Under the pieces are notes generated by a model. That model searched no databases. It was not told where the DNA came from and worked only from the letters and a program-made list of their open reading frames with translations. A DNA stretch of 63,999 bases, counting the filler, from Jimgerdemannia flammicorona (taxonomy: Eukaryota), in assembly GCA_003990765.1 (NCBI GenBank). It is 3 parts of 3 records of this genome, joined end to end, with 100 filler letters (N's around TTAATTAATTAA, not from the genome) between each part and the next. Parts side by side here need not be neighbours in the genome. Positions count along the whole stretch, not along the records: positions 1 to 21,324 come from RBNJ01001480.1; 2 more parts are not named here. One strand, 5' to 3'. Both the position numbers and the translations under genes were made by a program. Of this stretch, positions 7,149 through 30,103 are shown in pieces (within the stretch, counting starts at the first letter, position 1; every line of letters starts with the position of its first letter).

Positions 7149-8095
7149 TTTACAATCCAATTCCGCTTCAAGACGCTACCTCACTCTGCTACAAATCCCT
7201 CTGCAAATTCCTACAAGTTGGTATAAAGCCCAACCTCTGAACTGGAATTTATCCTGAACCATCTGATAATCTGGAGAGAATTGAACCTGATGTACAAGGA
7301 CAATTTGACCTCCACACCTGCAACAAGTGGGATAAACTTCATTCAAAGAAAGAAGTACTCAAGTTAAACCAGCAAATAGGCAAAACTCTATTCACTGAAC
7401 TCCTTGCACTACACCCAGCAAGTCAAGATGAAGAAGGTCTTATTGAAGCCTTCTTTACTCTTCTCAACAAGAGTTTCGTCAGCTCCACAAATCTGAGCAA
7501 CCTAGGACAACCAGCAGCAGTCTTTCTAGCCTTAGTTCCTCACGAAGCCCAAGCCTCTGTAGCCAAGTGGCTCAACTCTACCGACTTTCACCACACCAGG
7601 ACCAAGACTGCATTATACTACCAATTCCAGAACAGCAAGGCCTGCCATATTCTTAAGGAAGAAGCAAGAGAAACCCTTCATCAACTACCTGACCCCAAAC
7701 CTGAAGCAGGCCCTGCTATAGCCCTACCTGAATCTGAAACCAATACCAAACCTGAACTTGACTTTGAATTAAGTCCATCTGAAATCAGATATACAACTAA
7801 TTCTGTCTACTTTGACGCCGAGCAAACCCAATTACATGGGGACCAAACTGAAGAAGAGGAGGAGTATCTCACTGAATTCGATCTCGGATATACCACCGAA
7901 GGAGACACACATCCATCAGGACAGAATACACCTACACAGCAACAAACAGCTATCTATCAAGCCCTCACTCCAGATCCACAACTACTACTCCAGCAACTTA
8001 CACAGACCCAAAGAACCCCATCACACTCTGCACCAGTATCTCAAGTAGTACTAGTAATACCACTACCAGCAGTCCAACCACCTCCAGCAATCAAC

Positions 8096-9368
8096 ATGGC
8101 GAACCAACAGATTCTAGACCTCACAGCCCAAGTAGCTATAATGGCAGCAACCATTACTGCCTTAGCCGAACAGACCCAACCTACCAAAAATCTGAGCCTA
8201 CCTACCTTCAATGGTACTGCACAAGAAGTCCAAAGCTTCATTAGTGTAGTTGACACCAACTTCAAAGCCAATCAATGGACCAATGAATGAGTTGCTGACT
8301 GCGTTCTGACAAACAATCAAGACCACACCCTGGAATAACTCTTTGCTACCACTACAGCCTATGTCCGCCAAGTTGTTACATTCTTCCGAGGACCTGCCGA
8401 AGAATAGTGGTGAACCCTTCCTGAAAAACCCCTCATATAGGATACCCGACCTACAGTAGTTGCTCAGAATATAGCAAACAATGCCCCAGGATATGGAGCC
8501 CATCCTGCAGCCCCTGGACTCAAACAACTCATGATTGCTCAATATCGCAGCGAAACCATGATTGCTGAATCTCGAGTAAAACTCCGCAACCTCAAATTCG
8601 ATGTACATGGCAAAGAAGAATTTGAAACCTTCTGTACAAAACTCAAGTCACTCCTGAACACTGTTGGCCTAGGATATATTGCCAATGATGAAGCATGAAA
8701 TGGTACAAGAGCAGACCATTTATTCGATGCACTGCCTGAATGGCTTATTAGAAAAATCCGAGAACAAGGCCGCCCAGTTGGTTGTGACCACCAACAATAG
8801 TGCCTGGCAAGAATTAAGACCATGGTCAAGCGAATCCTAACAGCTGGACCAATTCTGCCCCAAAGATAATTTAACAACAAGGAAAGGACTTGGACCAAGA
8901 AAGAAGAACCCAAGCATGAAGCATCCCAAGCTCCCTCCACATCCACCTCTTGGACACCCAGAAATCCTGAACCCACCCAGTCCAGCACCTTCAAGAAACT
9001 TACTGAAGGCGAAAGGAATGAACTTCGAAGAAGTGGAGCATGCTTCTATTGCCAAAAGACAGGACACATGGCCAGTACCTGCCCCAACCGGAAACCCCGA
9101 ACAGCAACACAAGCAACTGTTACCACTCTGCACCACCTCAACAACCTGACCACCAGAACACTAGACTTTGTCAAGTTAAGACAAACTGCTAAGGCCCCAA
9201 TCAAAGGAAGTCAAAAAGCAGCTGGATATAACCTGTATACAGCTGAAGAAGCTACAGTCTCCAACCAAGAAGTCAAACAAGTCTACACAGGAATCAGTAT
9301 CCAAATCCCTGAAGGACATGTTGGAAGAATATGCTGTCGCAGCAGCCTAGCATTGAAAGGACTCTCAG
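8096..9368 (+). pseudogene. A1 gag (capsid and CCHC nucleocapsid) fused in frame to the N-terminal half of dUTPase
   Basis: Matches A2 gag; KGSQKAAGYNL and GRICCRSSLA dUTPase motifs; several in-frame stops. Confidence 0.88.
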
Positions 9369-11406
9369 TGTAAGAGGGTTACTTTTTAGGGCAACCATTA
9401 TGTAGTTCTGGAAAGGTTTTCTGGATATTCTGGATGTTCTGAAAGACTGTTTTCTTATGGTCAAGATCAATTTCGTATGGAGTACGTCCTCTACACTTAT
9501 TGATTTCAAGATCAGGTTGATGTCTCAACCAAAGTCCTTTTTCGGACTAGTTCTGGATGTTCAGGATTTTCCGTATTTCAGGAAGTTCAAGAAACTAAGA
9601 CCAGCTTAGTTGAATTGGCGTATCGCTGCAGACAATACCCAATTAGGAAATTTCGTGACGGGGTTAGGAGTGGGACCTAACAGAGAGTGGATTTACTTAA
9701 GAGTGATTTGTGGGTTATGGAATAGGTTTATTTGCTATTCATGATATTACTATACTAGGAGTATTTGTATGAAGGGATATTGTGGGGAAGTGCTCAGGAG
9801 TTCTGTTCAGATTGTTCAAGTCTGTTCAAGTCTGAGATTCTGAGGTCTGGGGGAGGGGGTATTTATACTAGTGAGGGGCTATTTGGACTATGCTAGATAT
9901 GGATGTAGTACTAAGTGCCTTGCTGAGTCAGAATGCAGTCACATAGTACAAGTGTGATCTGACATGTCAAGAGATCGTCTGACTGCTGAGTCAGTTCACA
10001 GTCATGTCATACAAGGTTAATCTATCTATACTATAACTGCTAGACTATTTATAGGTTTAGGCACTATCTGGGTAGTCCTCGATGACATCACCATCGATTG
10101 CATCATCTCTGATGAAGTAGTCATCTAGGAAGAGTGGTTCACGGATTACTTCTCCTTGTTGGCTAAGGTAGTAATACATTGGGACTTCATCTCCATCCCA
10201 AAGGATAGCATCATCTGTTTTGTATGCTGGATAAGGTGTTGGTGGGCGAAGAATGGGTGTACTGTCTTCGCTTTCATCGGATTTGCTGTCTGCATACCTT
10301 CTATAGGTTACAGCACTATGAGTTGCAGGGTTATAGTATGCTGGCGGCTGTGGTTCATGTTGCTCGTACTCAGGTAGTGGAGTGGTTGGTTCGATCTCGA
10401 GAGTTGTCTGAAGGTACAGGTTGTGTTCTCCAGTCTCTTCATTATAATTGAAGTAATCGGGGGTGAACGTGGGTTGGTATTCGTGTCAGTGGTCATTGTA
10501 TAAGTCTTGTATGTAATTATGAACTGTTATAAGTTCATTGGCAAGGTTGGTGGTATGATCAGGGTTGGCAGAGATTCTTGGCTAGAGGTCATGTCGGCGT
10601 CAGAGGGATCATTGTCTTCTGCTTCATCTTCGTCGAAGTGGATTATATCATAGACGTCCTTCATGGCGTATCCAACTTGAGGTATTTGCAGGATGTGGTC
10701 ATCAGGGTGCGGGAAGGTTCTGTCTGTGGTTTCGACATACTCGAGGTACTTGTGGTTGAGTTCTTGTATCATGTCATTGATTTGGTCGTAGGACAGAGTA
10801 GCAACCATTTTGCTGGTAGTGACTCGGAGGCGGGGAATAAAGGTGTTATACTCATAGAAGAGTTCTCGATGTTTGCAGGTGATAAGCTTTTGGTGTTGAG
10901 ACATCTGGGTAATATCTGTATTGTGGTGGTGTTCGACCATGTCTTCTAGGAGGTGGCCGATCTGGTAGTAGCTTGAGATTTGTCCGATTCGGTGGGCCTT
11001 GCTAAGCATGTTCAGGGCATTCCATCGGGCTTCCACAAAGTAGAGGGGTGCTAGGCTATGGATATTCATGAGGGGTAGAGGGGGTGTGGCTCAGTTGACA
11101 ATGGTATTCCAAATGTCAGCGCAGATGCAGTTGTAGATCTCAGTGGTCATGTTTGTGTGTTTGGAAGTTGTAGTTGTTATTTGTTTTGGTTCTCTGGTTT
11201 GACGTGTCTCGGTGCTCGGTATATAAGCATTTGGTCCTGATTAGTAAGGTTCCGTTTGTGTAAATCTTGTGTTCTGTGACTTCGTATTGACTCAGCTTTG
11301 TACACTGTGACTTCGGTTTGACTCAGCTTTGTGATCAAGCAGGTGATTTCCAGATTTGTTCGGAGGTCGCATGTGATTTCAGTGGCTTGGAGGTTGTGCG
11401 CTTACA
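9369..11406 (-). repeat. 3' LTR of A2 (2038 bp)
   Basis: Reverse complement of the A LTR; preceded on the minus strand by a PPT. Confidence 0.95.
10057..11150 (-). pseudogene. U3-encoded accessory ORF of family A (premature stops and a 4-nt deletion)
   Basis: ORF 10527..11069 matches the intact copy; 4-nt deletion near 10500 accounts for the 4-bp difference between the two LTRs. Confidence 0.85.
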
Positions 11407-11420
11407 ACTCTCCCCTTCTT
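11407..11420 (-). other. Polypurine tract of A2
   Basis: AAGAAGGGGAGAGT immediately 5' of the 3' LTR. Confidence 0.85.
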
Positions 11421-11849
11421 AGCTTTCGACGTCCTCGTCGGGGCCTTCTAATTTGTTCTAGTGTTGTTACACTGTTTGGGAGGTCAAAAGTCTGGTAAGG
11501 TCCATTTTCTCAGAAAGTGGCATGCTCATAGTACAGTTGCCTAACACGTTGGATTCACACGTTAAAGGGTCGTTTGTTCAATGCCATGCACCGGAAGTGA
11601 TTCTGATGTCATTCACTGCTGGAGAATTTTCTCTAAGGAATCTTCTTAAATGTCTACGCCTTGTTTCCTACCAGTGGTACAGGGAGAATAGGCTTGCTTT
11701 CAGTTTTGCTATTTTTCCAGAGGGTCGGTATTCTTGTCTTGTTTTGCTGAGTTCCTGACTTAGTTTGTGATAGTTATAATGTTCGGGAGGATAATACATA
11801 GTATGTATGGATCGGTGCAGAGTATTTGGTTTTACTTGTTCAAGAAATC

Positions 11850-14800
11850 ATATTTCTGAACTAGGTCGGTAGCATTCTGAAGATGGGTTCTCAGGTTGCA
11901 TCGTGGATTGGGTAACCTTTCCATTTGATAAGGTACTCGGGATGGTTCTTGTTACCACATTTGTTGAGGATTTGTTCAACTTCGTATTCTTCTTGATCAT
12001 TAATGATGACAGGTGCAGGTGGTTTGGTGGTTCAGTTTGGAAATAGTTCGTCATCATTGTCATTGTATCGCTTGAGACGTTGAACATTAAAGACTGGGTG
12101 AATCTTAATGGTGTCTGGTAGCACCAGTTTGTAGGAGGTTGGAGAGACTTGTGCGATAACTTCAAATGGTCCAATGAACTTGCTGTTCAGCTTTATAAAT
12201 GGTCTGTGCTTGAGGTTGTCAACTCGGTATCCTCTGATATCTAGTAGAACTTTTTCTCCAATATCGAAAGTTTCTTCTCGGCAGTGTTGGTTAACATACT
12301 GTGACTGTTGTTCTTGTGCTCGTGATAAATTCTCAATTGCGATCTGGCTTAGATTGCGCATTCGGAGTAGGAATTCCTCAACGGCTTCGACTGTGGAGGG
12401 TTCTTCAGTGGTTCGGATAAGTGTCAGAGGGGTGTTTGGGTTTTATCCAGTGTTGGCGAAGAATGGGGTCATTCTAAGAGAGGCTTGCTTGCTATTGTTA
12501 TAGGCAAACTCGACTGCGGTGAGGTGTTCATGCCAATCATCTTGTCTGTAGGAGACATAGTTCCTTAGCATTTGTTCCAGAGTTCGATTCATTCTTTCGG
12601 TTTGGCCATCAGTTTCAGGATGAAAGGCTGTGGATAGTACAAGTTTCGTTCCAAGGTGTGCATGGAGGGCTTTCCAAAAGTGGCTGGTGAATTTCGGATC
12701 TTGGTCACTAACAATGATCTTAGGTAGACCATAATAGTGGAAGATGTTGTCAAACAAGAGTATGGCTATATCTGGTGCTGTTGCAGTGGTGGTAGTAGGC
12801 ACAAAGTGGGCTTGTTTGCTGAGGTAGTCTACAAAGACAACAATTGCATCTTTTCCATTCTTGGTTCGAGGTAGTTGTACAATGAAGTCTATAGAGATTT
12901 GTTCCCAATTTGCAGATGGTACTGGAATAGGGTGGAGTAAGCCGGGTTTTGCTAGTGTTGAGGACTTGTTTCTTTGGCAGGCATCACAGGAAGTGATATA
13001 GGTTTTGAGCTGATCTGCCATGCGGGGCCAATAGAAGTTTCGGGAGATAACTTCATAACATTTATCAAATCCTAAATGTCCAGCTGTAGGGGCATCATGA
13101 CATTTGAATAGGATAGTCCTTCGGAGGTCTCGGTTGTTTGGGACATACAATCTGTCCTTATAGTAGATAGCATTATCCTTGAGTTAGTATTGATTGTACC
13201 AGGTATGCTTGTCAGCATCATCATTGTTCAGGATTTCTCAGAGTGCTTGAGCTTCTTTATCATCTACACATGCTGCGATGATTTGTTCCATGATAGTGTT
13301 GGTAACCAAGATCAGGGTTTGGATAATCTCTTCGATTAGTGGTCTGGAGATTGCATCGGCAACAATATTTTCCTTGCCAGGGCGGTACTGGATTTCATAA
13401 TCAAAGTTGGTGAGAACTTTCATCCATCTAGCTTGCTTTCGAGAAAGAGTAGCCTGTGTCTTGATGTTGACTAATGATTTGTGGTCAGTCAATACAGTGA
13501 AGTGTGCTCCTTCTAGATATGGTCGCCATTTGATCAGAGTGTCTATGATGGCTAGCATTTCCTTTTCATGAGTTGCATAGTTGATTTCGGCATCATTGAA
13601 CTTGCGGGAGTGATAGGCCACAGGGTGTCCTTCTTACATGAGCACTGCTCCAAGAGCTAGGTCAGAGGCATTAGTAGTGACTTCATATGGTAGGGCAGGG
13701 TTTGCTGCTTGAAGTACTGGTATGGTTATCAGGGCATCTTTCAGTGCTTGAAAGGTGGTATCTTGTTCGGGTCCCCAATTTACAAGATTGTTGAAGTCTT
13801 TCTCTTGTTTCATGGTCCAGGGTTGTTCTTGTTTCTTGCTGTACTTGGTCATTTGAGTGAGGGCAGTAGCGATTTTAGCAAAGTTGGCAACAAATCGCCT
13901 GTAATAGTTTGCTAATCCCAGGAATGACTGGAGGTCTTTCAGCTTCTTTGGTCTGGGCCAATCTTTGATTGCAGAGATTTTGCTGGGGTTCACTTTGATT
14001 CCATTTGGAGTGACAATGTGTCCAAGGAATTGAATTTCTTTCAGAAGAAATTCACACTTGCTGAGTTTTGCAAAGAGTCGGTTTTCTCGGAGTTTCAGTA
14101 GTACTAGTTCAAGGTGTTTGAGATGTTCCTCCAGAGTTTTGCTGAAGACTAGGATGTCATCAATGTAGACAATAACGAATTTGTCCAGGTATGGATGCAG
14201 AATGGTATTCATCAGTGTCTGGAAGGTTGCTGGAGCATTAGTTAAGCCAAAAGGCATAACCAGGAACTCGAAGTGTCCATAGCGAGTTCGGAAAGCTGTC
14301 TTATAGATGTCTTCTTCTTTCATGGCAATTTGTCAGTAACTATTTCGCAGGTTAAAAGAGCTCATGAATTGTGGGTTGGTGAGCCTATCAAATATTTCAT
14401 CAATCCTCGGTAGTGGGCAACAGTTCTTGATGGTCTGTTCATTGAGATTGTGGTAGTCAATGCACATTCGCAGGTCTCCTCCTTTTTTGACAACAAAGAG
14501 GACTGGTGCACCATAGGGTGATACACTAGGTCTGATGAATCCTTGTTCTAGGAGTTTGTCGATTTCCTTCTTGAGTGCATCAATTTCTCTTGAGGACATG
14601 TGGTAGATTGACTTGAAGGCTGGTTTGGCATCTGGGATAGTCTTGATAGCATGGTCTACTGTTCGTTTGTGTGGTAGGCCTTTCGGAAGTTTCTTTGGGA
14701 ATATGTCTTGGAATTTCTGGAGTAGTGGTCTGACACGGCTGTCAACTTTGGAAAAATCTTCTTCAGAGTTCTTGGGTTCTCCTTTGGATGGTCGGATGGA

Positions 14801-16957
14801 GATGGCAAAGAGAGGGCATTTCTTGGCCAATTTCTTGAGTAGTAGTTTGTTGATGTGGGTGATCTTTGGTCCAGGGTCCCTAGAGTTGAGTGGGTCCTTT
14901 TCGCCTTATAGTTTGAAGTTGTGGCATCCTTTCTTGATGGTAAGGGAATGGTTTACCCAATCGATCATGGGGTTCTCTTGTTTTAACCATGGAGTTCCAA
15001 GGATGATTTTATTGTCAGGAAGTGGTACGATTTGGAGGGTAACATGTACTCAGTAGTCACCAATTCGGAAGGGTAGATTGCGGACTTCTTTGCTAATAAC
15101 ATATGAGGTTCCATCAGCTGTAGCAACTGCTTGAGTTTGCTGTACTGGAGAGGTAAAGACCTTGAGTCTGTTGGCTGTCTCCTTATTGATGAAATTGCCT
15201 GAGGCACCACTGTCTATCATAATCTTGACAGGTGCTCCATTGACAAAAGCCTTAAGGGTGAGCAGTTTGTCTGATCCAATGGTGGTGATTTCAGTTGTAG
15301 GAGCCTTTCTTCTGTTGGTTCTTCTTTGAGCCAGTTTGTTGACACAAGAGAAGCAATCATCAATCATTCGGGAAGAGTACATTCCAATACCATGAGGGCA
15401 TCAGCCACTTGGTACATATCCATCTTCGATCTTCTTGTAGAATTGTTCTTCTTTGCTCACAGTAGGTTGGGCTGGGGCCTTATTTGATGAGCCAAATCCT
15501 TTGGATCCTCGGATGGTGGGTAGTAGTTCAGGGACTTCCTTGACTGTCAGGGTTGACTCGATTTTTTCGAATAGGATCTGGGTGATGCAGAAGCCAATAG
15601 GGATTTTGAAGGGTGTCCAACTGTAGTTTCAGATGAGGACAATGATTTCACCTGTGTAATCTTCATCAATGACTCCTCCTTCTACTGAGAGTCCTTTCAG
15701 TGCTAGGCTGCTGCAACAGCATATTCTTCCAACATGTCCTTCAGGGATTTGGATACTGATTCCTATATAGACTTGTTTGACTTCTCGGTTAGAAACTGTA
15801 GCTTCTTCGGCTGCATATAGATCATATCTGGCTGCTTTTTGACTTCCTTTGGTTGGGGCCTTAGCAGTTTGTCTTAACTTGACAAAGTCTAGTGTTCTGG
15901 TGGTCAAGTTGTTGAGATGGTGCAGAGTGGTAACAGTTGCTCATGTTGCTGTTCGGGGTTTTCAGTTAGGGCAGGCACTGGCCATGTGTCCTGTCTTTTG
16001 GCAATAGAAGCATGCTCTGCTTCTTCGAAGTTCATTCCTTTCGCCTTCAGTAAGTTTCTTGAAGGTACTTGGCTGGGTGGGTTCATGATTTCTGGGTGTC
16101 CAAGAGGTGGATGTGGAGGGAGCTCGAGATGCTTCATGCTTGGGTTCTTCTTTCTTGGTCCAAGTCTTTTCCTTGTTGTTGAATTGCCTTCGGGGCAGAA
16201 TTGGTCCAGCTGTTAGGATTCGCTTGACCATGGTCTTGATTCTTGCTAGGCACCATTGTTGGTGATTGCAACCAACTGGGTGGCCTTGTTCTTGGATTTT
16301 TCTAGTGAGCCATTCAGGTAGGGCATCGAATAAATGGTCTGCTCTTGTACCATTTCGTGCTTCGTCATTGGCAATATATCCTAGGCCAACAGTGTTCAGG
16401 AGTGACTCAAGTTTTGTACAGAAGGTTTTGAATTCTTCTTTGCCATGTACATCAAATTTGAGGTTGTGGAGTTTTACTCGAGATTCGGCAATCATTGTTT
16501 CGCTGCGATATTGAGCAATCATGAGTTGTTTGAGTCCATGGGCTACAGGATGGGCTCCATATCCTGGGGCATTATTTGCTGCATTCTGGGCAACTACTGC
16601 AGGTCGGGTATCCCATGTGAGGGGTTTTTCGGGAAGGGTTCGCCACCATTCTTCGGCAGGTTCTCGGAAGAATGTAACAACTCGGTGAACATAAGCTGTA
16701 GTTGTAGCAAAGAGTTGTTCTAGGGCGTGGTCTTGATTGTTTGTCAGAATGCGGTCAGCAACTCGCTCATTAGTCCATTGATTGGCTTCAAAGTTGGTGT
16801 CAACTACACTAATGAAGCTTTGGACTTCTTGTGCAGTACCGTTAAAGGTAGGTAGGCTCAGATTTTTGGTAGGCTGGGTCTGTTCGGCTAAGGCAGTAAT
16901 GGTTGCTACCATTATAGCTACTTGGGCTGTGAGGTCTAGAATCTGTTGGTTCGCCAT
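11850..16957 (-). pseudogene. A2 gag-dUTPase-PR-RT-RNaseH-integrase-chromodomain polyprotein with scattered stops
   Basis: CCHC knuckle; dUTPase; DSGA; YIDD; RNase H (EKEMLAI, TDHKSL); integrase HHCC, DFIVQLP and HPETDGQTER; GPF motif; chromodomain EEYEVEQIL...YLIKWKGY. Confidence 0.95.
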
Positions 16958-17903
16958 GTTGTTTACTGGAGGCAGTTGGACTGCTGGTAGTGGTATTACT
17001 GGTACTACTTGAGGTACTAGTGCAGAGTGTAATGGGGTTCTTTGGGTCTGTGTAAGTTGCTGGAGTAGTAGTTGTGGATCTGGAGTGAGGGCTTGATAGA
17101 TAGCTATTTGTAGCTGTGTAGGTGTATTCTGTCCTGATGGATGTGTGTCTCCTTCGGTGGTGTATCTGGGATCAAATTCGGTGAGATACTCCTCCTCTTC
17201 TTCAGTTTGGTTCCCATGTAATTGGGTTTGCTCGACGTCAAAGTAGACAGAATCAGTTATATATCTGATTTCAGATGGACTTAATTCAAAGTCAAGTTCA
17301 GGTTCGGTATTGGTTTCAGATTCGGATAGAGCTGTAGCAGGGCCTGCTTCAGGTTCAGGGTCAGGTAGTTGATGAAGGGTTTCTCTTGCTTCTTCTTTGA
17401 GGATATGGCGGGCCTTGCTATTCTGGAATTAGTAGTATAAGGCGGTCTTGGTCCTGGTGCGGTGAAAGTCAGTAGAGTTGAGCCACTTGGCTACAGAGGC
17501 TTGGGCTTCGTAAGGAACTAAGGCTAGAAAGACTGCTGCTGGTTGTCCTAGGTCACTCGGATTTGTGGAGCTGACAAAACTCTTGTTGAGAAGAGTAAAG
17601 AAGGCTTCAATAAGACCTTCTTCATCTTGACTTGCTGGGTGTAGTGCAAGGAGTTCAGTGAATAGGGTTTCACCTATTTGTTGGTTTAACTTGAGTACTT
17701 CTTTCTTTGAATAAAGTTTATCCCACTTATTGCAGGTGTGGAGGTCAAATTGTCCTTGTACGTCAGGTTCAATTCTCTCCAGATTGTCAGATGGTTCGGA
17801 TTAATTCCAGTTCAGATGTTGGGCTTTATACCAACTTGTAGGAATTCACAGAAGGGTTTGTAGCGGAGTGAGAAAGCGTCTTGAAGCAGAATTGGATTGT
17901 AAA

Positions 17904-17915
17904 CTGCTGCTACCA
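17904..17915 (-). other. Primer-binding site of A2 (tRNA-iMet type)
   Basis: TGGTAGCAGCAG 3 nt downstream of the 5' LTR. Confidence 0.8.
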
Positions 17916-17918
17916 AGT

Positions 17919-19960
17919 TGTAAGAGGGTTACTTTTTAGAGCAACCATTACGTAGTTCTGGAAAGGTTTTCTGGATATTCTGGATGTTCTGGAAGACCGT
18001 TTTCTTATGGTCAAGATCAATTTCGTATGGAATACATCCTCTACGCTTATTGATTTCAAGATTGGGTTGATGTCTCAACCAAAGTCCTTTTTCGGACTAG
18101 TTCTGGATGTTCAGGATTTTCCGTATTTCAGGAAGTTCAAGAAACTAAGACCAGCTTAGTTGAATTGGCGTATCGCTGCAGACAATACCCAATTAGGAAA
18201 TTTCATGATGAGGTTAGGAGTGGGACCTAACAGAGAGTGGATTTACTTAAGAGTGGTTTGTGGGTTATGGAATAGGTTTATTTGCTATTCATGATATTAC
18301 TATACTAGGAGTATTTATGTAAAGGAATATTGTGGAGAAGTGCTCAGGAGTTCTGTTTGGATTGTTCAAGTCTGTTCGAGTCTGAGATTCTGAGGTCTGG
18401 GGGAGGGGGTATTTATACTAGTGAGGGGCTATTTGGACTATGCTAAATATGGATGTAGCACTAAGTGCCTTGCTGAGTCGGAATATAGTCACATAGTACA
18501 AGTGTGATCTGACATGTCAAGAGATCGTCTGACTGCTGAGTCAGTTCACAGTCACGTCATACAAGGCTAATCTATCTATACTATGACTGCTAGACTATTT
18601 ATAGGTTTAGGCACTATCTGGGTAGTCCTCGATGACATCACCATCGATTGCATCATCTCTAATGAAGTAGTCATCTAGGAAGAGTGGTTCATGGATTACT
18701 TCTCCTTGTTGGCTAAGGTAGTAATACATTGGGACTTCATCTCCATCCCAAAGGATAGCATTGTCTGTTTCGTATGCTGGATAAGGTGTTGGTGGGCGAA
18801 GGATGGGTGTACTGTCTTCGCTTTCATCGGATTTGCTGTCTGCGTACCTTCTATAGGTTACAGCACTATGAGTTGCAGGGTTATAGTATACTGGCAGCTG
18901 TGGTTCATGTTGCTCGTACTCGGGTAGTGGAGTGGTTGGTTCGATCTCAAGGGTTGTCTGAAGGTACAGGTTGTGTTCTCCGATCTCTTCATTATAATTG
19001 AAGTAATCGGGAGTGAACGTGGGTTGGTATTCATACCAGTGGTCATTGTCCCAATAAGTCTCGTATGTAATTATGAACTGTTGTAAGTTCATCGGCAAGG
19101 TTGGTGGTGTGATCAGGGTTGGCAGAGATCCTTGGCTAGAGGTCATGTCGGCGTCAGAGGGATTATTATCTTCTGCTTCATCTTCGTCGAAGTGGATTAT
19201 ATCGTAGACATCCTTCATGGCATATCCGACTTGAGATATTTGCAGGATGTGGTCATCAGAGTGCGGGAAGGTTCTGTCTGTGGTTTCGACATACTCGAGG
19301 TACTTGTAGTTGAGTTCTTGTATCATGGCATCAATTTGGCCGTAGGACAGGGTAGCAACCATTTCACTGGTAGTGACTCGGAGGTAGGGAATAAAGGTGT
19401 TGTACTCATAGAAGAGTTCTCGATATTTGTGGGCAATAAGCTTTTGGTGTTGAGACATCTGGGTAATATCTGTATCGTGGTGGTGTTCGACCATGTCTTC
19501 TAGGAGGCGGCCGATCTGGTAGTAGCTTGAGATTTGTCCGATTTGGTGGGCCTCGCTAAGCATGTTCAGGGCATTCCATTGGGCTTCCACAAAGTAGAGG
19601 GGTACCAGGCTATGGATATTCATGAGGGGCAGAGGGGGTGTGGCTCGGTTGACAATGGCATTCCAAATGTCAGCGCGGATGCAGTTGTAGATCTCAGTGA
19701 TCATATTTGTGTGTTTGGAAGTTGTGGTTATTATTTGTTTTGGTTCTCTGGTTCGACGTGTCTTGGTGCTCGGTATATATGCATTTGGTCCTGATTAGTA
19801 AGGTTCTGTTTGTATAAATCTTGTGTTCTGTGACTTCGTATTGACTCAGCTTTGTGCACTGTGACTTCGGTTTGACTCAGCTTTGTGATCAAGCAGGTGA
19901 TTTCCAGATTTGTTTGGAGGTCGTGTGTGATTTCAGTGGCTTGGAGGTTGTGCGCTTACA
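17919..19960 (-). repeat. 5' LTR of A2 (2042 bp)
   Basis: TG...CA termini; next to PBS and TSD. Confidence 0.95.
18607..19704 (-). CDS. Intact 365-aa accessory protein encoded inside the LTR (U3); helical N-terminal domain and acidic, Y/P-rich C-terminal half; function unknown
   Basis: Uninterrupted ATG-to-TAA ORF; the same frame is kept in three other A LTR copies; homologous ORF in family B LTRs. Confidence 0.85.
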   Translation of the reverse strand: MITEIYNCIRADIWNAIVNRATPPLPLMNIHSLVPLYFVEAQWNALNMLSEAHQIGQISSYYQIGRLLEDMVEHHHDTDITQMSQHQKLIAHKYRELFYEYNTFIPYLRVTTSEMVATLSYGQIDAMIQELNYKYLEYVETTDRTFPHSDDHILQISQVGYAMKDVYDIIHFDEDEAEDNNPSDADMTSSQGSLPTLITPPTLPMNLQQFIITYETYWDNDHWYEYQPTFTPDYFNYNEEIGEHNLYLQTTLEIEPTTPLPEYEQHEPQLPVYYNPATHSAVTYRRYADSKSDESEDSTPILRPPTPYPAYETDNAILWDGDEVPMYYYLSQQGEVIHEPLFLDDYFIRDDAIDGDVIEDYPDSA

Positions 19961-21324
19961 CTCAGTAGAAGGAGGAGTCATTGACGAGGATTACACAGGT
20001 GAAATCATTGTCCTCATTCGAAACCATAGTTGGACACCCTTCAAGATCCCTATTGGCTTCTGCATTGCCCAGATCTTGTTCAAAAAAATTGAGTCAACCC
20101 TGACAGTCAAGGAAGTCCCTGAACTACTACCCACCATCCGAGAATCCAAAGGATTTGGCTCATCAAACAAGGCCCCAGTCCAACCTACTGTGAGCAAAGA
20201 AGAACAATTCTACAAGAAAATAGAAGATGGATATATATCAAGTGGCCGATGCCCTCATGGTATTGGAATGTACTCTTCCCGAATGATTGATGATTGCTTC
20301 TCTTGTATCAACGAACTGGCTCAAAGAAGAACCAACAGAAGGAAAGCTCCTACAACTGAAATCACCAGCATTGGATCAGACAAACTGCTCACCCTTAAGG
20401 CTTTTGTCAATGGAGCACCTGTTAAGATTATGATAGACAGTGGCGCCTCAGGCAACTTCATCAATGAAGAGACAGCCAACAGACTCAAGGTCTTCACCTC
20501 TCCAGTACAGCAAACTCAAGCAGTTGCTACAGCTGATGGAACCTCACATGTTATTAGCAAAGAAGTCCACAATCTACTCTTCCGAATTGGTGACTACTGA
20601 GTACATGTTACCCTCCAAATCGTACCACTTCCTGACAATGAAATCATCCTTGGAACTCCATGGTTAAAACAAGAGAACCCCATGATTGATTGGGTAAACC
20701 ATTCTCTGACCATCAAGAAAGGACGCCACAACTTCAAACTATAAGGCGAAAAGGACCCACTCAACTCTAGGGACCCTGGACCAAAGATCACTCACATCAA
20801 CAAGCTACAGCTCAAGAAATTGGCCAAGAAATGCCCTCTCTTCGCCATCTCCATCCAACCATCCAAAGGAGAACCCGAGAACTCTGAAGAAGATTTTTCC
20901 AAAGTTGACAGCCGTGTCAGACCACTACTCCAGAAATTTCGAGATATATTCCCAAAGAAGCTACCGAAAGGCCTACCTCCCAAATGAGCAGTAGACCATG
21001 CAATCAAGACTATCCCAGATGCCAAACCAGCCTTCAAGTCAATCTACCACATGTCTCCAAGAGAAATTGATGCACTCAAGAAGGAAATCGATGAACTCCT
21101 AGAACAAGGATTCATCAGACCCAGCGTATCACCCTATGGTGCACCAGTCCTCTTTGTTGTCAAGAAAGGAGGAGACCTGTGAATGTGTATTGACTACCGA
21201 GATCTTAATGAACAGACCATCAAGAACTGTTGCCCACTACCAAGGATCGATGAAATATTTGATAGACTTACCAACCCACAATTTATGAGCTCTTTTGACC
21301 TGCGAAATGGTTACTGGCAAATTG
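19961..21324 (+). pseudogene. Continuation of the A1 polyprotein: dUTPase C-terminal half, protease, RT start
   Basis: VEGGVIDEDYTGEI, RESKGFGSS, IDSGASGNF, CIDYRDLN; in-frame stops. Confidence 0.9.
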
Positions 21325-21424
21325 NNNNNNNNNNNNNNNNNNNNNNNNNNNNNNNNNNNNNNNNNNNNTTAATTAATTAANNNNNNNNNNNNNNNNNNNN
21401 NNNNNNNNNNNNNNNNNNNNNNNN
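21325..21424. other. Assembly gap with a TTAATTAATTAA stop linker
   Basis: N-run containing an artificial all-frame stop spacer. Confidence 0.98.
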
Positions 21425-24069
21425 ATCTTGGCTTCAGTGATGATGAGGAGGAACAAGAATCAGACATCACCCTCAAGGTCAAGAAGTTTCACCCTGAAGC
21501 CAAGATCCCAGAATATAAGACTGAAGGAGCCATAGAAATGGACCTTGCCAGCATTCAAGATACTACCCTTGAACCACAGACCACCACTCTACTTGGCACT
21601 GGAATTGGAGTCAAGTTACCAGAGAACTATACCAGAATTATCAAGACCAAGAGCAGTCTGGCCAAAAGCAAAATCTCAGTTGAAGGAGGAGTAATTGACC
21701 CTGATTACACTGGCGAGATCTTCCTCATAGTCAGGAATCACAACCACACCACCTCCTTCGAAGTCAAGAAGCATGACAGAATTGGCCAGATGCTGATCCA
21801 TGAAATCAAGAAGCCCAAGATCATTGAAGCCATCGAACTCATCAAGACCAAGAGAGGAGAACAAGGCTTTGGATCTACTGGAAGAGGAGCCTATACTGCC
21901 ACCAAGATTACTGAACTTGAGCACAAGAAAGACAAGGACCAGAACAAGCACACATATACTATTGGAGAAAACTTTCCCCTAGAGGAACAACTCCTCAAGA
22001 TCCTGCATCAGAACGAAGGAGTACTTGCTACAGACTTCAGGGATATCCACAATCAAGAACCCAAGTACTACCACGAAGTTGACACTGGTGATACCAAGCC
22101 CATCTACCTGAAAGCCAGACTCATACCACCTGTCTACAGAGAATGGCTGCGAGCAGAACTCAAGGAAATGGAAGAAGCCAGAATCATCAAGCAAGCTATC
22201 AGTCCCTGGGCCTCACCCATTGTTCTTGCCCTGAAGAAAGGAAGCAAGCCTGGAGAGTTTGCACCAAGACTCTGCATTGACTACAGGAAGCTCAATGCCA
22301 TCACCAAGAAGGATAGACAGCCCTTGCCAAATATTGAAGAGATTCTTACCACTCTTGGAAGCAAAGCCAAATACTTCACCACCTTAGATCTGTTCTCAGG
22401 CTTCCATCAGATTGGTCTCACTCAAGATGCCAGTGAGAAATCAGCCTTCATCACACCTCATGCCACCTATATCTATCTGCGAATGCCATTTGGAATATGC
22501 AATGCCCCAGCAAGTTTCCAGCAAATGATGAACAGAGTCTTCAGCAATGAGATTGGAAAATGGCAGTTTGTCTATGTTGATAATGTGATCATCTTCAGCA
22601 ACACTGTATGGGAATATGTCAATCACATACAGCTAGCCCTCAAGAGGCTCAAGGAGCATGGCCTCTACATCAAGCCCAAGAAATGCAAGTTTGTAGCTCA
22701 AGAAATTGCCTACCTAGGACCCCTCATCAACCAGACTGGAATCCACTCAGACCCCATGAAGATCGAGGCTGTTGCAGCCTACCCGAGACCCAGAACAACC
22801 ACAGAAGTCCATGCCTTCCTTGGACTGGCCAGCTACTACAGAAGGTTCATCAAAGGATACTCCAATATTGTAGCACCTATCTATGAGCTACTGAAGAAGG
22901 AGACCAAATTCGAATAGACCAAGGAGTACCAATAAACCTTCAATAAACTCAAGACCAGGTTGACCCAAGCACCTTTCCTCAGAAGACCAGATTGGAACCT
23001 AGAATTCATCCTGCAGACAGATACAAGTGCTATAGAACTTGAAGCAGTCCTAGCCCAGAAGAAAGATGGATATGAATATGTTATCTCCTATGCAAGCCAA
23101 GGTACCCATAGAGCAGAACAGAACTATGAGTCATACAAGCTTGAATGCTTAGCAGTAGTTTGGGCAGTAGATAAGTTCCACTACTACCTAGCCGGAAAAC
23201 ACTTCACCATTCAAACAGACCTCTCTGCTCTTGCCTGGCTATTCCACACTCTGAACCTCAAAGGAATATATGCCAGATGGATCTACAGGCTGCAAGAGTA
23301 TGACTGTACTGTCAAGCACCACTCAGGAAAGACCAATACCAATGCCGATGCACTCTCAAGGACACCCCAAAACACCCCCATCAAGACTATTCAACATGAA
23401 TAAGGAGCTATACTATGGATTAATCAGCTACTTTGGGCAGCAGAAGATGCCCAACCACCTCAAACCCTGGACAATCACCATCATCAACTGGACTTGGAAA
23501 TAGTTTGAATTAAACAATACTATACTTAGAAAAGGAGGAAAGCTAGTAATACCTGAACACAAGAAGTATCAAGTAATGAAGGAAGTATATGAGCAAGGAC
23601 ACTTAGGAGGAACCAATACATATGGCAAGGCAAGAAGAACCATGTGGTGGCCCAAGATGGAAGAAGACCTGTGCCAATTTGTCAAAGGGTGTGATAAGTG
23701 CCAAAAACAGAAACAAGATCAGTAAGACCAGGCATCTGGGTCATCAAGAATTGAGCCTATCCCCTTCCACCACATCACAATGGATATCATTGGACCACTA
23801 CCAGTAACACTATCAGGAAACCACTATATTATAGATATTGTAGACCTCTTCGCCAAATGGATAGAGGCAGGAGCATTACAAGAAGCCAATGCCCTCTCTA
23901 TAGTCGACTTTCTGTACTGAAAAATCATCTACTGCTACAAGACACCAAAGCAAATCACAACAGACCATGGAATGGAATTTGTCAATAGATTCCACGAGAT
24001 AATATATCAGAAATACAAGATCCAGCACATCAAGACCACCATGTACCACCCTCAAGGAAATGGACAGAC
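21425..24069 (+). pseudogene. Element B pol: dUTPase, RT, RNase H and integrase N-terminal part
   Basis: GGVIDPDYTGEI, RGEQGFGSTG, SPWASPIVL, RLCIDYRKLN, RMPFGICNAPASFQ, NADALSR. Confidence 0.92.
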
Positions 24070-24472
24070 TGTAATATTTTAGCATAGTTTATTTCTTTTC
24101 TTTGTCTTTCCTCAATATTCTATGACCTTCCAGTACTTTCCAAATGCTTAGAAATCCTTTTGTGGCACCAAGCATCCTCTAGTACTTATTTAGCTAGTCA
24201 CTGATTGTCCTGGAAACTTATAGAACTTTATTTGTCATCATTTGTCATCTTTGCCGAGAACTTTCCTCTTGGTATTTTCCTTTGATTTCTCAGATCCTTC
24301 CGGATCCTTCTTTCAGATCTTGTATCAATATCCCCTTTGTTCTCATGAATAAAGTCTGAGAATATTTTCTCTCAGAAATCTTTCAAGAATACTTGAATCC
24401 TCAGTATCTCTTTGAGCTACTTAGGACTACCAGAACTAGTTGCTTCCTCATTTAGAAACCAGAACCATTACA
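24070..24472 (+). repeat. 5' LTR of element C
   Basis: TGTAAT...TTACA; direct repeat of 29696-30098. Confidence 0.95.
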
Positions 24473-24540
24473 CTTGGTAGCAGCGGTTAAGTTACACCTA
24501 GCCTTATCAAGACACCTGTCAAGATATCAGTCACAACACT

Positions 24541-27500
24541 ATGGGGGACAATGGGTGGAATCCTTCATACAGTACCTATGGTCCAGGTAATACCTCATAC
24601 CATCAGTAAGAAGAAGAGGAACAGCAAAACCCTACTCAGTCAAATGGGGCCATCAAGAGTCTTTTGCAGACTGCATTAGCTCAGACTGCTCAACTTCAAG
24701 AATGCATAGAAAGAAAGGAAAGCAAGGCCTCCGCTCATACCTCTGCACCTCCACTGACATCAATATATCCAACAGCAGTCACTATCAAGCCTCAGAAGCC
24801 TGACACTTTTGATGGTCAAAGAGGAGGACTGTCTACCAACGCCTGGCTTTTCCAATTGGAGCAATATAGAGAACTGACCAATTTGGAAGAAGCAACACTA
24901 GTCCAATTTGCCACCACACTCCTCCGAGGGAATGCTGCAATCTGGTAGTGAAATCATGTCCAGAATACCAGATTCTCTGGCTGAATCAAGACCTGGGGTG
25001 AATTCTCTAATGCTATTCAAGGCCAATTCAAACCAGTCAACAGCACTAAGGCCATGCAAGACCATCTGGCAAATGTCAAACAACTCAAGTCTGTGCAAGT
25101 ATATAATGCACAATTCCTGTCAATCCTGCTAGAATTACTATATGTCACTGAAGATGAGAAGGTTGACAAGTACATCAGAGGCCTGAAAGGTCAAACCCAA
25201 GTTCATGTTGAACTAGAAGAACCCAAGGATCTAGACATGGTAATGAAAATTGCTGATAGGTTTGATGTCATCATCTATGATCACTATTTTGAACAGAAGA
25301 GACTACCTTTCAACAACAACAATAACCACAGAAGGGAGGAATCCAAAGTCAGAACTATTGGACCTGCCCCCATTGACCTAGATACCATCAACTAGAACAA
25401 GAAAGGCAAGATTACACCTGAGGAAAAGGAGTACCTCAAGAAGGCTAGAGCCTGCTTCTTTTGCCATCAGCCTGGTCACATTGCAACAAAATGTCCCAAG
25501 AAAACTGCCAAACCAAAGAGGATCCTGGTCCTGTTCAAAGACACTCAAGGTCAACCAGTTGAACAAGAAGTTGTACTCAATTTCATGCGAGTCAACTCCA
25601 AGGCCCAGATCCCTCAAGCACAGTCAGAAGGAGCCATTAGTTTGGACCTTCAAGCAGTACAACAAGTCACTATTCTGGCACATGAGAGAAGGCTCATTTC
25701 AACTGGTCTTTCAGTTGAATTTCCCAAGGAACATTATGCAAGAATTTTACCAAGATCAGGCCTCAGTTTCAAGTACTCATTGGATGTTGGTGCTGGAGTC
25801 ATTGACCCTGACTTCTGAGGTGAAATGTAAGTCCTGCTAGTCAACCACAAGAACCAACTATATACCGTCAATGAAGGTAACAGAATTGCACAGCTCATTC
25901 TGGAGTGAGCCACCCTACCAGTCATCAAAGAAGTCACCAAGCTGTCTCCAACCAAGCAAGATCAGAAAGGCTTTGGCAGCACTGACAAAGTTGCAAGTAT
26001 AGCTGAGAACCAAGCCAATTCAATACTCATTTTCAAAGGTCTAGTCAAGGGACAAGAACTAGATATTCTCATAGACAGTGGAGCTGTTGGGAACTTCATC
26101 AACAAGAACCTCATCGATAAGCTCAAGATTCTCACCAAACCAGCTGGCAAGAATGGTAGAGTTGTTACCACAGATGGCACCACCTTACCAATTGACTCAA
26201 TTGCTGCTAAACTTCCCCTCAAGATCCAGAAGTACTGGGAATGTTTAGATTTCGAGATAGCACCACTAGGAGATCATGACCTGATCCTAGGCAAACCCTG
26301 GCTAACATGGCACAACCCTCAGATTGATTGGACCAAGAATGAAGTCACCTTGATTCAGGATGGAGCCAACATTACCATCAAGCCAGACAAGACTCAGACG
26401 AGAACCCCAATTGCGACCCTTTCAGCAATTCAGTTCAAGAAGGCCCTCAAGAAAGCTACCTATGCCTTTGTGGCACTGATCTGATCAAAGAAAGAAGACA
26501 AGAAGCTATCAATTGGTGAAAGCATCAAGTTACTACGGAATAAGTACAAGGATGTCTTCCCAGACAAACTACCTGGTCTACCATCCTCAAGAGACCATGA
26601 CTATGAGATCAAGTTGGTACCTGATGCAGCTATACCTAAGAAGAAAATGTACCATATGTCTCTACTCGAAATTGAAGCAGTCAAGAAGGAACTCAATGAA
26701 CTCATTGAGTGAGGAGGCATTCAGCCAAGTAAGTCACCCTTTGGCTCCCCAGTCCTATTTGTCAAGAAAAAGGATGATACTCTGCGAATGTGCATAGACT
26801 ACTGAGCACTCAACAAGATCACAGTCAAGAACCATTATCTGCTACCACTCATATATCAAATCTTTGATGCTCTCAAAAATGCAAAGTACTTCACCAAGAT
26901 TGATCTCACCTCTGAGTATCACCAAATTCGAATCAAGCCAGAAGACATACCCAAGACTGCCTTCATGACACCCTTTGGACTCTACAAATTTCTAGTCATG
27001 GCCTTTGGTCTCACCAATGCACCAGCAACCTTTCAAGATCTCATGTAAACTGTCTTCAAAGACCAGCTCTATATCTTTGTACTTGTATACATTGATGACA
27101 TCCTGATCTTCAGTAGAACTGAAGAAGAATACCTCAAGCACATTGAACAAGTCCTCAAGATCCTCTGCAAGAACAAGCTCTACGCAAAGCTCAAAAAATG
27201 TGAATTTTTCAAGGATCAAGTCAAATACCTTGGACACATTGTATCAGCCAAAGGAATTCAAGTAGACCCAAGGAAAATACAAGCCATTGAACAGTGGCCT
27301 ATACCAGCAAACCTCACAGAACTCAGGTCCTTCCTTGGTCTGGCTGGATACTACCATCAATTTATCAAGAACTTTTCTGGCATTGCAGAATCTTTGACAA
27401 ATCTCCTGTGAAAGGAACCCAACTCTGACCTCTATGTCCCCTACATCTGGGATGCTTTCTGTCAACAAGCTTTTCAAGAACTCAAGAACCGTCTGACCCA

Positions 27501-29382
27501 TGCACCTGTCCTGAGAAACATGGACCCAAACTTGAAGTTCACAGTCACTACAGATGTATCTAACTTTGCCATTGGTGCAGTCATTTCTCAAGATGATGGT
27601 CAAGGACACCAACCTATTGCCTTTGAGTCAAGAAAATTGTCCCTAGTGGAACAAAAGCTGGCTACTCATGAAAAGGAACTCCTGGCAATCATGCATGCCC
27701 TCAAGATCTGGGAATACTATCTAGAAGGAGTTGAGTTCAATGTGATCACTGATCACAGATCCCTCCAGTACATCAACACTTAACCAACTCTTTCTTGCCA
27801 ACAAGCCAAGTGGAGTCAACTACTTCAGACCTTTATCCCAAACATCATCTACAAGCCTGGCAAAACCCTAGTTGTACCAGATGCACTTTCAAGAAGATCT
27901 GACCTTGCTGCAATTTTACAAGTCACTGTGGCACCTGAATTCCTCAACCAGATCAAGAAGACGTATGAACAAGACTCTCTGGTTCTACAAAGGAACACCA
28001 AGGAATTCAAGAAAAAGTACACCATTAAGGACAACCTCATGTACTATCAAGACAAAGTATATATTCCTGCCAACCCTGAACTTTGGTACAAGATTCTTCA
28101 TGAACATCATGACTCCCCACTAGCTGGCCACCTTGGAACTGAGAAGATCATCAAGAATATCCAACGAGACTACTACTGGCCAAACATGCTCAAGGAAATC
28201 AAGGAGTATATCCAAAGCTACGATCTTTGTCAAAGAAACAAGTCAAGTAACCAAGCACCAGCCAGTCTTCTACAACCCTTGTCAATTCCAACCAAGAAGT
28301 TCGAACAAGTCACAATGGACTTCATTGTGCAACTCCCATGAACCAAAACAGGCTATGATGCTATTGTTGTGTTTGTGGACTATCTCACTAAGATTACAAT
28401 TGCTGAGCCAACCACAACCAATGCCACTGCCCCAAAAATTGCAAGAATCTTCTTCAAGACTGTCTTCCACCATTATGGACTTCCCTGAGTAATTATCAGC
28501 AACCGTGATCCCAAGTTCACAAGTCACTTCTGGTAAGCACTCTTCAAGACCCTTGGAACCCAAATTGCTATGTCCACTGCCTTCCATCCTCAAACTAATG
28601 GACAGACAGAGCAAATGAACAGAACACTTGAACAAATGCTCAAAAACTATGTGTCTTATGAGCAAGATAATTGGGACCACTATCTGACCTATGCCAAGTT
28701 CACCTACAACAATACCAACCAATCATCAACTGGCCTTTCCCCATTTCAGCTACTTAATGGTCAAAACCCCAAGACCCCTGCAAGCCTAGTCCAATTCCAG
28801 CAATCCAGTCACACTCAAGTTCCCACAGCCCACAACCTTATCGACAAAATAGATTCCCTTCTCAAGATTGCCACTACAAATCTGCAAAAGGCTCAGCAAT
28901 ATTAAGCTAAGTATGCAGATAAGAAGCAGCGAGATGTCATATACAATATTGGTGATATGATTCTACTCAAAGCCGACAACATCAAGGCTCAATCTCAAGT
29001 CAACCGCCAGTCAGCCAAATTCCAGCCCAAGTACCTTGGACCCTTTGAAATTACTGAGCAAGTCTCTACCTGGTCTTACCATCTCAACTTGCCAACAACC
29101 ATGCATATACACCCAGTATTCCATATGTCACAACTCAAGGCCTGGAATCAGTCACCCCCATACCCTGGCCGAATTCTGACACCATCAGCACCAGTCATAG
29201 TTGAAGTCCACATCGAGTATGAAGTTGAGAAAATCTTAGACAAGTGAGTCTGATATCATTGCACAGAATACCTAGTCAAGTAGATGGGTTACCCTGAATA
29301 TGATGCTACCTGGAAACCTGCTGCCAATCTCAAGAACTTCCAAGACCTCATCTAAGAGTTCAAGCAAAAAGAAACTCATTGA
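24541..29382 (+). pseudogene. Element C gag-dUTPase-PR-RT-RNaseH-IN-chromodomain polyprotein with many stops
   Basis: PQKPDTFDG gag; CFFCHQPGHIATKC; ILPRSGL and AGVIDPDF dUTPase; IDSGA; YIDD; HPQTNGQTE; GPF; EYEVEKILD. Confidence 0.93.
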
Positions 29383-29695
29383 CTGCCCATGAGGTTCTCC
29401 CCTTGGATAGTAGACGACCTACTATACTAATCAGGCACATTATGCATCGGGGCTCCCTAAGGGATACAGCATCAGAAGTAAGAGATATAGGAGAACCCTA
29501 TAAATCCTGCAACCAATGAGGTTTGAACCAGTTCTCATCCAATCAAGATGATACTTTGGCCCTTGCCTTATACAAGGATGGCCAATTCTTGCCAATGAGT
29601 TGGTATATTTAATTTGAAGTTTCTTTTAGTCTTATTGTTTATTATGTATAACTTTGAGAATTCAATGAGAATATTGATTCTTAAGGAGGGGGAGA

Positions 29696-30098
29696 TGTAA
29701 TATTTTAGCATAGTTTATTTCTTTTCTTTGTCTTTCTTCAATATTCTATGACCTTCCAGTACTTTCTGAATGCTTAGAAATCCTTTCTTGGTGCCAATCA
29801 TCCTCTAGTACTTATTTAGCTAGTCACTGATTGTCCTGGAAACTTGTAGAACTTTATTTGTCATTATTTGTCATCTTTGCTGAGAACTTTCCTCTTGGCA
29901 TTTTCCTTTGATTTCTCAGATCCTTCTGGATCCTTCTTTCAGATCTTGTATAAATATTCCCTTTGTTCTCATGAATAAAGTCTCAGAATATTTTCTCTCT
30001 GAAATCTTTTGAGAACACTTGAATTCTTAGTATCTCTTCGAGCTACTTAGGACTACCAGAACTAGTCACTTCCTCATTTAGAAACCAGAACTGATACA
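29696..30098 (+). repeat. 3' LTR of element C
   Basis: Follows the PPT; direct repeat of the 5' LTR. Confidence 0.95.
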
Positions 30099-30103
30099 CA
30101 GAC

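Follow-up and report, generated by a model that had tools for sequence, protein, structure and literature searches.

A conserved open reading frame inside the long terminal repeats of two fungal Ty3/gypsy lineages: a candidate accessory gene

Can the long terminal repeat (LTR) of a retrotransposon itself house a gene? Apart from a few retroviruses, such repeats count as nothing more than regulatory DNA and are masked in annotation pipelines. The question is raised by a stretch of 63,999 nucleotides from Jimgerdemannia flammicorona (GCA_003990765.1; three parts of records of this genome joined end to end, hereafter the window), which self-comparison and a reading of its junctions resolved into a pile of nested Ty3/gypsy elements. 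LTRs of two families in this pile, termed A and B, hold a sense open reading frame (ORF) that is distinct from gag and pol and lies inside bona fide LTR retrotransposons. We consider it very likely that this ORF is a real, selected gene of these transposable elements.

Reading frames within the LTRs and their constraint

The LTR copies and the reading frames in them are as follows.

9369-19960, minus strand: element A, a complete nested chromovirus with LTR pair, target-site duplication, primer-binding site and polypurine tract
17919-19960, minus strand: A4, 5′ LTR of element A, 2042 nt, 94.9% identical to A3 and holding the intact ORF A
18607-19704, minus strand: ORF A, 365 codons, intact and in sense, wholly inside A4 (LTR positions 257-1354 of 2042)
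9369-11410, minus strand: A3, 3′ LTR of element A, with the polypurine tract AAGAAGGGGAGAG just upstream
10057-11150: ORF copy of A3, three stops and a 4-nt deletion
5103-7133, plus strand: A2, 5′ LTR of an older A-type element, the insertion target of element A
5359-6455: ORF copy of A2, one stop and a 1-nt deletion
3478-5102, plus strand: A1, a truncated A LTR of about 1.63 kb that precedes A2
3716-4813: ORF copy of A1, ten stops, no indel
30991-32526, plus strand: B1, 3′ LTR of gypsy element B, 1.5 kb, with the polypurine tract AGGAGGAAGA at 30981-30990
31233-32054, plus strand: ORF B, 273 codons, inside B1; its start position reads ATA, and it has a single stop, TAG (31584-31586)
39927-41472, minus strand: B2, a second B LTR, solo LTR or remnant, inverted relative to B1
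about 40428-41230, minus strand: ORF copy of B2, ATG kept, one stop and a 1-nt deletion

LTR A4 contains a stop-free run of 395 codons, a length reached by none of 2000 dinucleotide-preserving shuffles (maximum 251). When the other A copies are read in the A4 frame, the ORF is open in one of the four only, and ORF B is broken in both of its window copies; full-length versions of ORF B, 247-323 amino acids (aa) long, occur on metagenome contigs. B1 and B2 are 86.5% identical, and five of the six indels between them within the ORF are multiples of three. The polypurine tract and the integrase end that precede B1 identify it as the 3′ LTR of the B element. Because B1 and B2 are inverted and host genes (NB-ARC/TPR and MFS) lie between them, they represent two separate insertions and not the LTR pair of one element; no B internal sequence was found adjoining B2, and no clear target-site duplication was identified at its junctions.

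These copies modify what had first been read from the sequence. The original prediction placed an intact 365-codon sense ORF in the A LTRs and a frame of ~273 codons in the B LTRs. The former holds for A4, but the frame is open in one of four copies and A1 is only ~1.63 kb long; for the latter, coordinates and length were right, but the two B LTRs are not one element's pair and neither copy is intact. The further idea that solo LTRs leave behind a working stand-alone gene found no support in the window, where the sole solo-like copy, B2, is broken.

The differences between copies of ORF A at codon positions 1, 2 and 3 were distributed as follows.

A4 and A1: 37, 25 and 84 (p = 2e-9)
A3 and A2: 31, 11 and 49 (p = 7e-6)
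A2 and A1: 51, 21 and 78 (p = 9e-8)
A4 and A2: 32, 16 and 42 (p = 3e-3)
A3 and A4, sister LTRs of one element: 18, 15 and 23 (p = 0.42, no bias)

Since A3 and A4 were identical at insertion and drifted later, no codon-position bias is expected between them. The ratio of non-synonymous to synonymous substitutions per site (dN/dS) for ORF A was 0.16-0.27 between separate insertions and 0.61-2.1 in the other two sense frames, these values coming from the plain Nei-Gojobori method, uncorrected for a strong CpG and transition bias and with the two other sense frames as sole control. For ORF B, we compared B1 with L001, a 1345-nt locus with an intact B relative and the sole locus obtained from a metagenome scan in which the single protein P0004 served as query. 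Over 193 codons, dN was 0.27, dS about 2 (saturated) and dN/dS 0.12, with 58, 37 and 94 differences at the three codon positions (p = 2e-6). In contigs of two other sequencing runs (X1 and X2), which hold diverged copies, seven of the ten in-ORF variants among the 40 variants listed are synonymous third-position changes; 312 further variants lie outside this count. Together these patterns carry the signature of purifying selection, acting on ORFs A and B in replicating lineages, with neutral decay after insertion. Selection on the frame, as had been proposed, is borne out by the third-position excess and by the dN/dS of 0.16-0.27 (A) and 0.12 (B), and values near 1, which had been named as the contrary result, were not seen.

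Two side observations concern mutation in these copies. Codon 20 of ORF A (19645-19647) is Arg in A4 and in the metagenome protein P0003 and a stop in three of the four window copies, which looks like recurrent mutation. The variants in X1 and X2 are mostly transitions, plus-strand G>A (sense C>T) being the commonest, at 133 places in X1 and 80 in X2.

Kinship of the two reading frames

The A and B LTRs are, as anticipated, dissimilar in DNA and could not be aligned except for a shared 13-mer at the TATA box. Comparison of the two ORF proteins by BLASTP returned one collinear segment of 109 aa with 23% identity (E = 1e-4, single comparison). With a HMMER profile of B, the A-like protein P0003 scored 18.1 bits and A4 12.3 bits; when nine more B sequences were included, the scores were 20.0 bits (E = 2e-8) and 14.0 bits (E = 1.4e-6), E-values being given at Z = 1, that is, per single comparison. 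None of 20,000 shuffles of P0003 reached the real score, and one of 20,000 did for A4. Among 1221 six-frame pieces of the window, the top three non-B matches of the B profile were copies of the A ORF, in the correct frame (best E = 0.001).

The aligned region covers residues ~6-127 of A and ~18-141 of B. Both sequence blocks on which the original prediction had based the alignment of the two proteins fall within the BLASTP and HMMER alignment, but the match is confined to the N-terminal ~120 residues and does not run through the whole proteins. A motif that seemed common to the C-terminal parts, PT..P.[FY]...W, fell below significance and was dropped. Homology of A and B in the N-terminal domain is likely and, by these alignments, moderately supported.

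The alternative is that the two ORFs are unrelated, having been acquired or having arisen independently, and that their N-terminal similarity is due to chance or composition. Profile comparison, which the prediction had singled out as a test, gave a divided answer in this respect: hhalign on small A and B alignments was weak (E = 0.007, probability 5%), and the HMMER profile of B gave E = 2e-8 to 1.4e-6. An identity of just 23%, unaligned tails and the lack of a fold to compare would also suit independent origins. We nonetheless regard such origins as improbable, since the score of the B profile against the A family rose as B sequences were added, at most one in 20,000 shuffles reaches the real score, and A copies are the top three non-B matches among the six-frame pieces. 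In addition, the match is collinear and at an equal distance from the N-terminus, and the gene has the same position in both LTRs.

The protein collections contain relatives of both families. The A-like proteins are P0002, which matches residues 115-364 at 64% identity, and P0003, which matches residues 1-128 at 89%. B-like proteins number 15 (P0004-P0018); they are 59-80% identical to ORF B and form subfamilies of 247-271 aa and 323 aa, and several of them are full-length, on separate short contigs.

Placement in the LTR, product and competing explanations

Placement within the LTR and possible expression of the ORFs were assessed from the following signals.

18406-18418, minus strand: main TATA box GTATAAATACCCC of the A LTR, at LTR position ~1545, beyond the stop codon of ORF A
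18277-18282, minus strand: AATAAA of the A LTR, a putative poly(A) signal some 130 nt past the main TATA box
32293-32305, plus strand: main TATA box GTATAAATACCCC of the B LTR, with AATAAA at 32321-32326
19772-19782, minus strand: upstream TATA-like element GCATATATACC, candidate promoter, 76 nt before the ORF A ATG
31146-31153, plus strand: upstream box TATAAAAG, 87 nt before the ORF B start position
19842-19879, minus strand: two TGAGTCA sites in a 31-bp tandem duplication, upstream of the ORF A candidate promoter
31109-31115, plus strand: TGAGTCA site in B1, upstream of TATAAAAG

The 13-mer GTATAAATACCCC is exact in A2, A3, A4 and B1, where 0.02 matches are expected by chance. The AATAAA of the A LTR is kept in A2, A3 and A4, A1 being truncated ahead of the site, and the spacing from TATA box to AATAAA is about 130 nt in A and 16 nt in B. 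This TATA-AATAAA island is kept in the distant B relative L001 despite diverged surrounding non-coding DNA, and a similar module is found in the 400-bp LTR of a third gypsy element of the window, element C (score 34, z 5.0, maximum of 300 shuffles 35). Both ORFs stop 190-240 nt upstream of GTATAAATACCCC. Lying inside a true LTR and upstream of this core-promoter-like box and the AATAAA, they are placed by sequence in U3 (the unique 3′ region), as predicted; we hold that they are probably in U3 rather than in R (the repeated region).

All four A copies retain the upstream element GCATATATACC, altered once in A3, and TATAAAAG does not vary among B1, B2 and the more distant L001, while the DNA around it has diverged. 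With a TATA element 76-87 nt before its start, the LTR gene may have a promoter of its own, a proposal that we rate at slightly less than even chances.

A different arrangement would put the ORFs in a very long R. Genomic RNA would then start at the upstream TATA element with the ORF as its first cistron, and the second TATA box would be incidental or would serve a shorter RNA, an arrangement comparable to that of certain plant gypsy elements with extra ORFs upstream. The conservation of a TATA element 76-87 nt upstream of both ORFs speaks for such an arrangement; however, no other non-coding island is as conserved across A, B and L001 as GTATAAATACCCC with AATAAA, and the ORF-less LTR of element C has a similar module at its core. 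We know of no precedent for an R region of about 1.5 kb, and we find this explanation quite improbable.

Several further observations concern the same stretch of the LTRs. TGAGTCA is presumably an AP-1/Gcn4-type site; TGASTCA sites number 26 in the window against 13.2 expected, a count reached by none of 100 shuffles. Sixteen of them lie in A LTR copies (3541-19879), two in the 31-bp tandem duplication and up to two before the main TATA box, and each B LTR has one (31109, 41348), upstream of TATAAAAG. A candidate splice acceptor upstream of ORF A, ACTAATCAG (19791-19799), was rejected because its branch-like motif lies 3 nt from the AG and is altered in A1 and A2.

In the X1 and X2 contigs, summed depth was 160-4900 over the last ~400 nt of the A LTR (17955-18365) and only 0-70 over the remaining A LTR and gag, with a rise that starts some tens of nucleotides downstream of the main TATA box, and a drop at the LTR end. 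Possible sources of this rise are R-U5 (U5, the unique 5′ region) material, either strong-stop DNA or short RNA, and a far more abundant repeat that shares the segment. The same contigs break inside A LTR copies (18046, 18517, 19800) into sequence like the LTR terminus of element C, which suggests that C-like elements repeatedly inserted into A LTRs of those genomes; these loose ends also suggest that the contigs are DNA.

What might the ORFs encode? Both proteins are acidic (isoelectric point 4.2-4.6; 4.2 for ORF A), with strongly negative C-terminal halves. Their C-terminal windows have a net charge of -7 to -10 per 30 residues and 7-13 hydrophobic or aromatic residues; these figures describe composition only, and they confirm the acidic, hydrophobic tails that had been noted in both proteins. 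The ORF A protein is predicted to be helical over its N-terminal ~140 aa, followed by an acidic, Tyr/Pro-rich C-terminal part, and low-confidence models predict helices in the N-terminal 120-165 residues of the A and B proteins; the N-terminus of the ORF B protein is basic and Arg/Ser-rich. Hydrophobic segments are absent (maximum Kyte-Doolittle 19-residue mean 0.98), and therefore the protein is not env-like, nor like Sag of mouse mammary tumor virus (MMTV).

ORF A and ORF B proteins had no Pfam match at E<=1, with no gag or pol domain, and no match to PDB sequence profiles below E = 0.25; in the ESM Atlas, the best scores were 0.86 with low recognition and gave no lead. None of these three resources revealed a recognizable DNA-binding or promoter-targeting domain. 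Among 1.84 billion representative proteins and in a 5.8-billion cluster index, no homologs were found besides A-like and B-like ORFs. The match to gag, env or a known family that would have spoken for another origin was thus not found in Pfam, PDB or the protein collections.

On balance, we lean toward a retrotransposon accessory gene housed in the LTR, representing a new family with a helical N-terminal domain of ~120 residues and a fast-evolving acidic, hydrophobic tail. The family would be carried in U3 by two distant dUTPase-bearing Ty3/gypsy lineages, chromovirus A and non-chromovirus B. Their LTR would be a two-promoter LTR, in which the first promoter, at the upstream TATA element, drives transcription of the LTR gene as a short, monocistronic mRNA with its end at the poly(A) signal of that LTR. 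Being wholly inside the LTR, the gene is duplicated at both element ends and would be retained by solo LTRs, which usually far outnumber full elements; with its own promoter and poly(A) signal, it could be expressed from 5′, 3′ and solo LTRs alike.

The product would be a soluble, probably nuclear regulator that aids the element. We would guess first that it activates transcription from the LTR, as foamy-virus Tas does, and second that it antagonizes host silencing. The first guess comes from a composition that combines an acidic, activation-like region with a small putative targeting domain, and an activator function seems possible but doubtful. Still less can we count on the widest form of this proposal, which we think unlikely: that LTRs in one group of fungal Ty3/gypsy elements are autonomous genes, with promoter, a new family of nuclear regulators and poly(A) site; that their elements are "complex" retrotransposons with a Tas-like positive-feedback or anti-silencing factor; that the gene passed between chromovirus and non-chromovirus lineages or was retained in both; and that solo LTRs seed trans-acting or domesticable genes.

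LTR retrotransposons do capture host sequence, and the ORFs could accordingly be passengers, fragments of a captured host gene that sit in the LTR and bring the element no advantage. We hold this to be very improbable, since the protein collections yield only A-like and B-like homologs, purifying selection is seen within both transposable element lineages, and the gene has been kept by two lineages whose reverse transcriptases (RTs) are 36-38% identical. That there is no gene at all, the open frame being a by-product of an A/C-rich LTR sense strand with little T (22.6%) and G (15.9%), is strongly disfavored: most window copies are indeed broken, but none of the 2000 shuffles gives such a frame, the third-position excess is specific to the ORF frame, comparison with a relative whose synonymous sites are saturated gives a dN/dS of 0.12, and the ORF is preserved in diverged relatives.

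A number of points tell against an LTR-housed accessory gene shared by A and B. Only one of the six A and B LTR copies in the window has an intact ORF, and the dN/dS values carry the bias and the single kind of control described above. The A family has only its two relatives among the 1.84 billion representative proteins, and all relatives, A-like and B-like, are on metagenome contigs of 540-2375 nt, too short for wider context. Besides the weak hhalign result, the C-terminal halves of A and B gave no alignment and have only their composition in common. AlphaFold models reached a predicted local distance difference test (pLDDT) score of 31 for A and 39 for B, with no confident fold, and the proposed function is drawn solely from composition. 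Element C, finally, is without the ORF, yet its RT is closer to that of B (42.5%) than the RT of A is (36%); the gene must accordingly have been lost, or have moved between lineages, at least once.

Surroundings, precedents and implications

Further features of the nested elements are these.

17904-17916, minus strand: primer-binding site TTGGTAGCAGCAG, 2 nt past the 5′ LTR of element A
about 24070-30102: element C, the third gypsy element, with 400-bp LTRs without ORF and the target-site duplication CAGAC
8870-9370 and 19845-20597: dUTPase regions of A type
21427-22914: dUTPase region of B

The LTRs of element A, A3 and A4, are 2.04 kb each with TG..CA ends, and the element is flanked on both sides by a perfect 5-bp target-site duplication, CTCAG. 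It sits within the dUTPase region of the older, plus-strand A-type element. Its interior is degenerate and comprises a gag with CCHC knuckle, dUTPase, protease, RT, RNase H, integrase and an SH3-like domain, with Pfam matches to RVT_1, RT_RNaseH, Integrase_H2C2, rve, SH3_Tf2-1 and Chromo (E = 6e-9). With the order protease, RT, RNase H, integrase and a C-terminal chromodomain, element A is a Ty3/gypsy chromovirus. The pol of element B has dUTPase, RT, RNase H and integrase and ends without a chromodomain, so that the restriction of this domain to A, noted at the outset, stands. The TTGGTAGCAGCAG motif is also found after A2 and after the element C LTR.

Element C splits the integrase of element B into an earlier part (23504-24069) and a remainder (30103-30677). 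All three gypsy families of the window have a dUTPase domain upstream of the protease, and their RTs are mutually 36-42% identical (A and B, 36-38%; B and the ORF-less element C, 42.5%). An N run at 21325-21424 hides the junction between the older A-type element and B.

Host genes adjoin the B LTRs. Directly downstream of B2 and in the same orientation is an MFS transporter gene, with its main exon at 37450-38976 (minus strand) and a likely first exon near 39554-39928; the B2 LTR promoter could read through into it. Between the inverted B LTRs, at 33601-36047, lies an NB-ARC and TPR (NLR-like) gene, in which six repeat units of 126 bp (42 codons) each, 60-80% identical, make up the TPR part.

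The closest precedents for the placement of ORFs A and B are retroviral. Genes in or overlapping U3 include sag of MMTV (the "LTR ORF"), lentiviral nef and foamy-virus tas/bet. Like ORFs A and B as placed by sequence, the genes sag, nef and tas are in sense, in U3 and upstream of the LTR promoter, with an accessory, non-structural role that ORFs A and B would share; here, in contrast, the host is a fungal Ty3/gypsy retrotransposon without env, and Sag, Nef and Tas have no sequence match to the ORF A and B proteins (Pfam E<=1, PDB). MMTV Sag has a membrane segment, whereas the ORF A and B proteins are without one, and for ORFs A and B a promoter of their own within the LTR is proposed in place of splicing.

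A second comparison is with acidic activators, represented by activation domains of the VP16/Gcn4 type and by foamy-virus Tas, which activates its own LTR. The A and B tails resemble these in combining Asp/Glu with bulky hydrophobic residues, and they are conserved in character and not in sequence, a likeness of composition only; they differ from them in that the ORF A and B proteins have no recognizable DNA-binding domain.

Extra genes are also known from LTR retrotransposons. Zhao et al. (2011) is reportedly cited in connection with extra ORFs (aORFs) such as brtn of Boty. Plant aORFs (in Ogre, Retand, RIRE2 and Grande) and the Boty antisense gene brtn are extra ORFs of LTR retrotransposons, which, in the portions of the source available, are internal ones, sited upstream or downstream of gag-pol (PMC7264820). 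As described there, aORFs resemble ORFs A and B in adding a gene to gag and pol, in being conserved across a family's copies and in their presumed usefulness to the element; they differ in being internal, whereas ORFs A and B are wholly inside the LTR. No named family showed sequence similarity to ORFs A and B in Pfam or the protein collections.

Among fungi, dUTPase-bearing gypsy elements have been described in the basidiomycetes Postia placenta (PosPlaTy3) and Phanerochaete chrysosporium and in Tuber (Tmt1), and a Figure 3 legend in the available part of that source marks, for some fungal elements, an "add. ORF" whose function is unknown (PMC2864245). These elements have the dUTPase in pol, as do A, B and C; the available text mentions no LTR-internal ORF, and the position of the "add. 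ORF" is not stated there. A study of crapaud, as far as its available text goes, describes variable 5′ halves of LTRs and reports no LTR ORF (PMC10787394). Limited literature searches, which reached their sources in part, gave MMTV only for ORFs within LTRs and nothing on LTR retrotransposons. Within that scope, an accessory gene at this location has so far been described only for retroviruses, and the protein family is one without known relatives.

If the LTRs of A and B do house an accessory gene, some retrotransposons of fungi would possess a level of regulation resembling that of complex retroviruses, and solo LTRs could be genes that are expressed. Repeat masking would have kept an entire protein family from view, and its members would provide a means of testing how these elements evade or adjust host silencing. 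The case would also illustrate how a shift of the polypurine tract can fold an accessory gene into U3.

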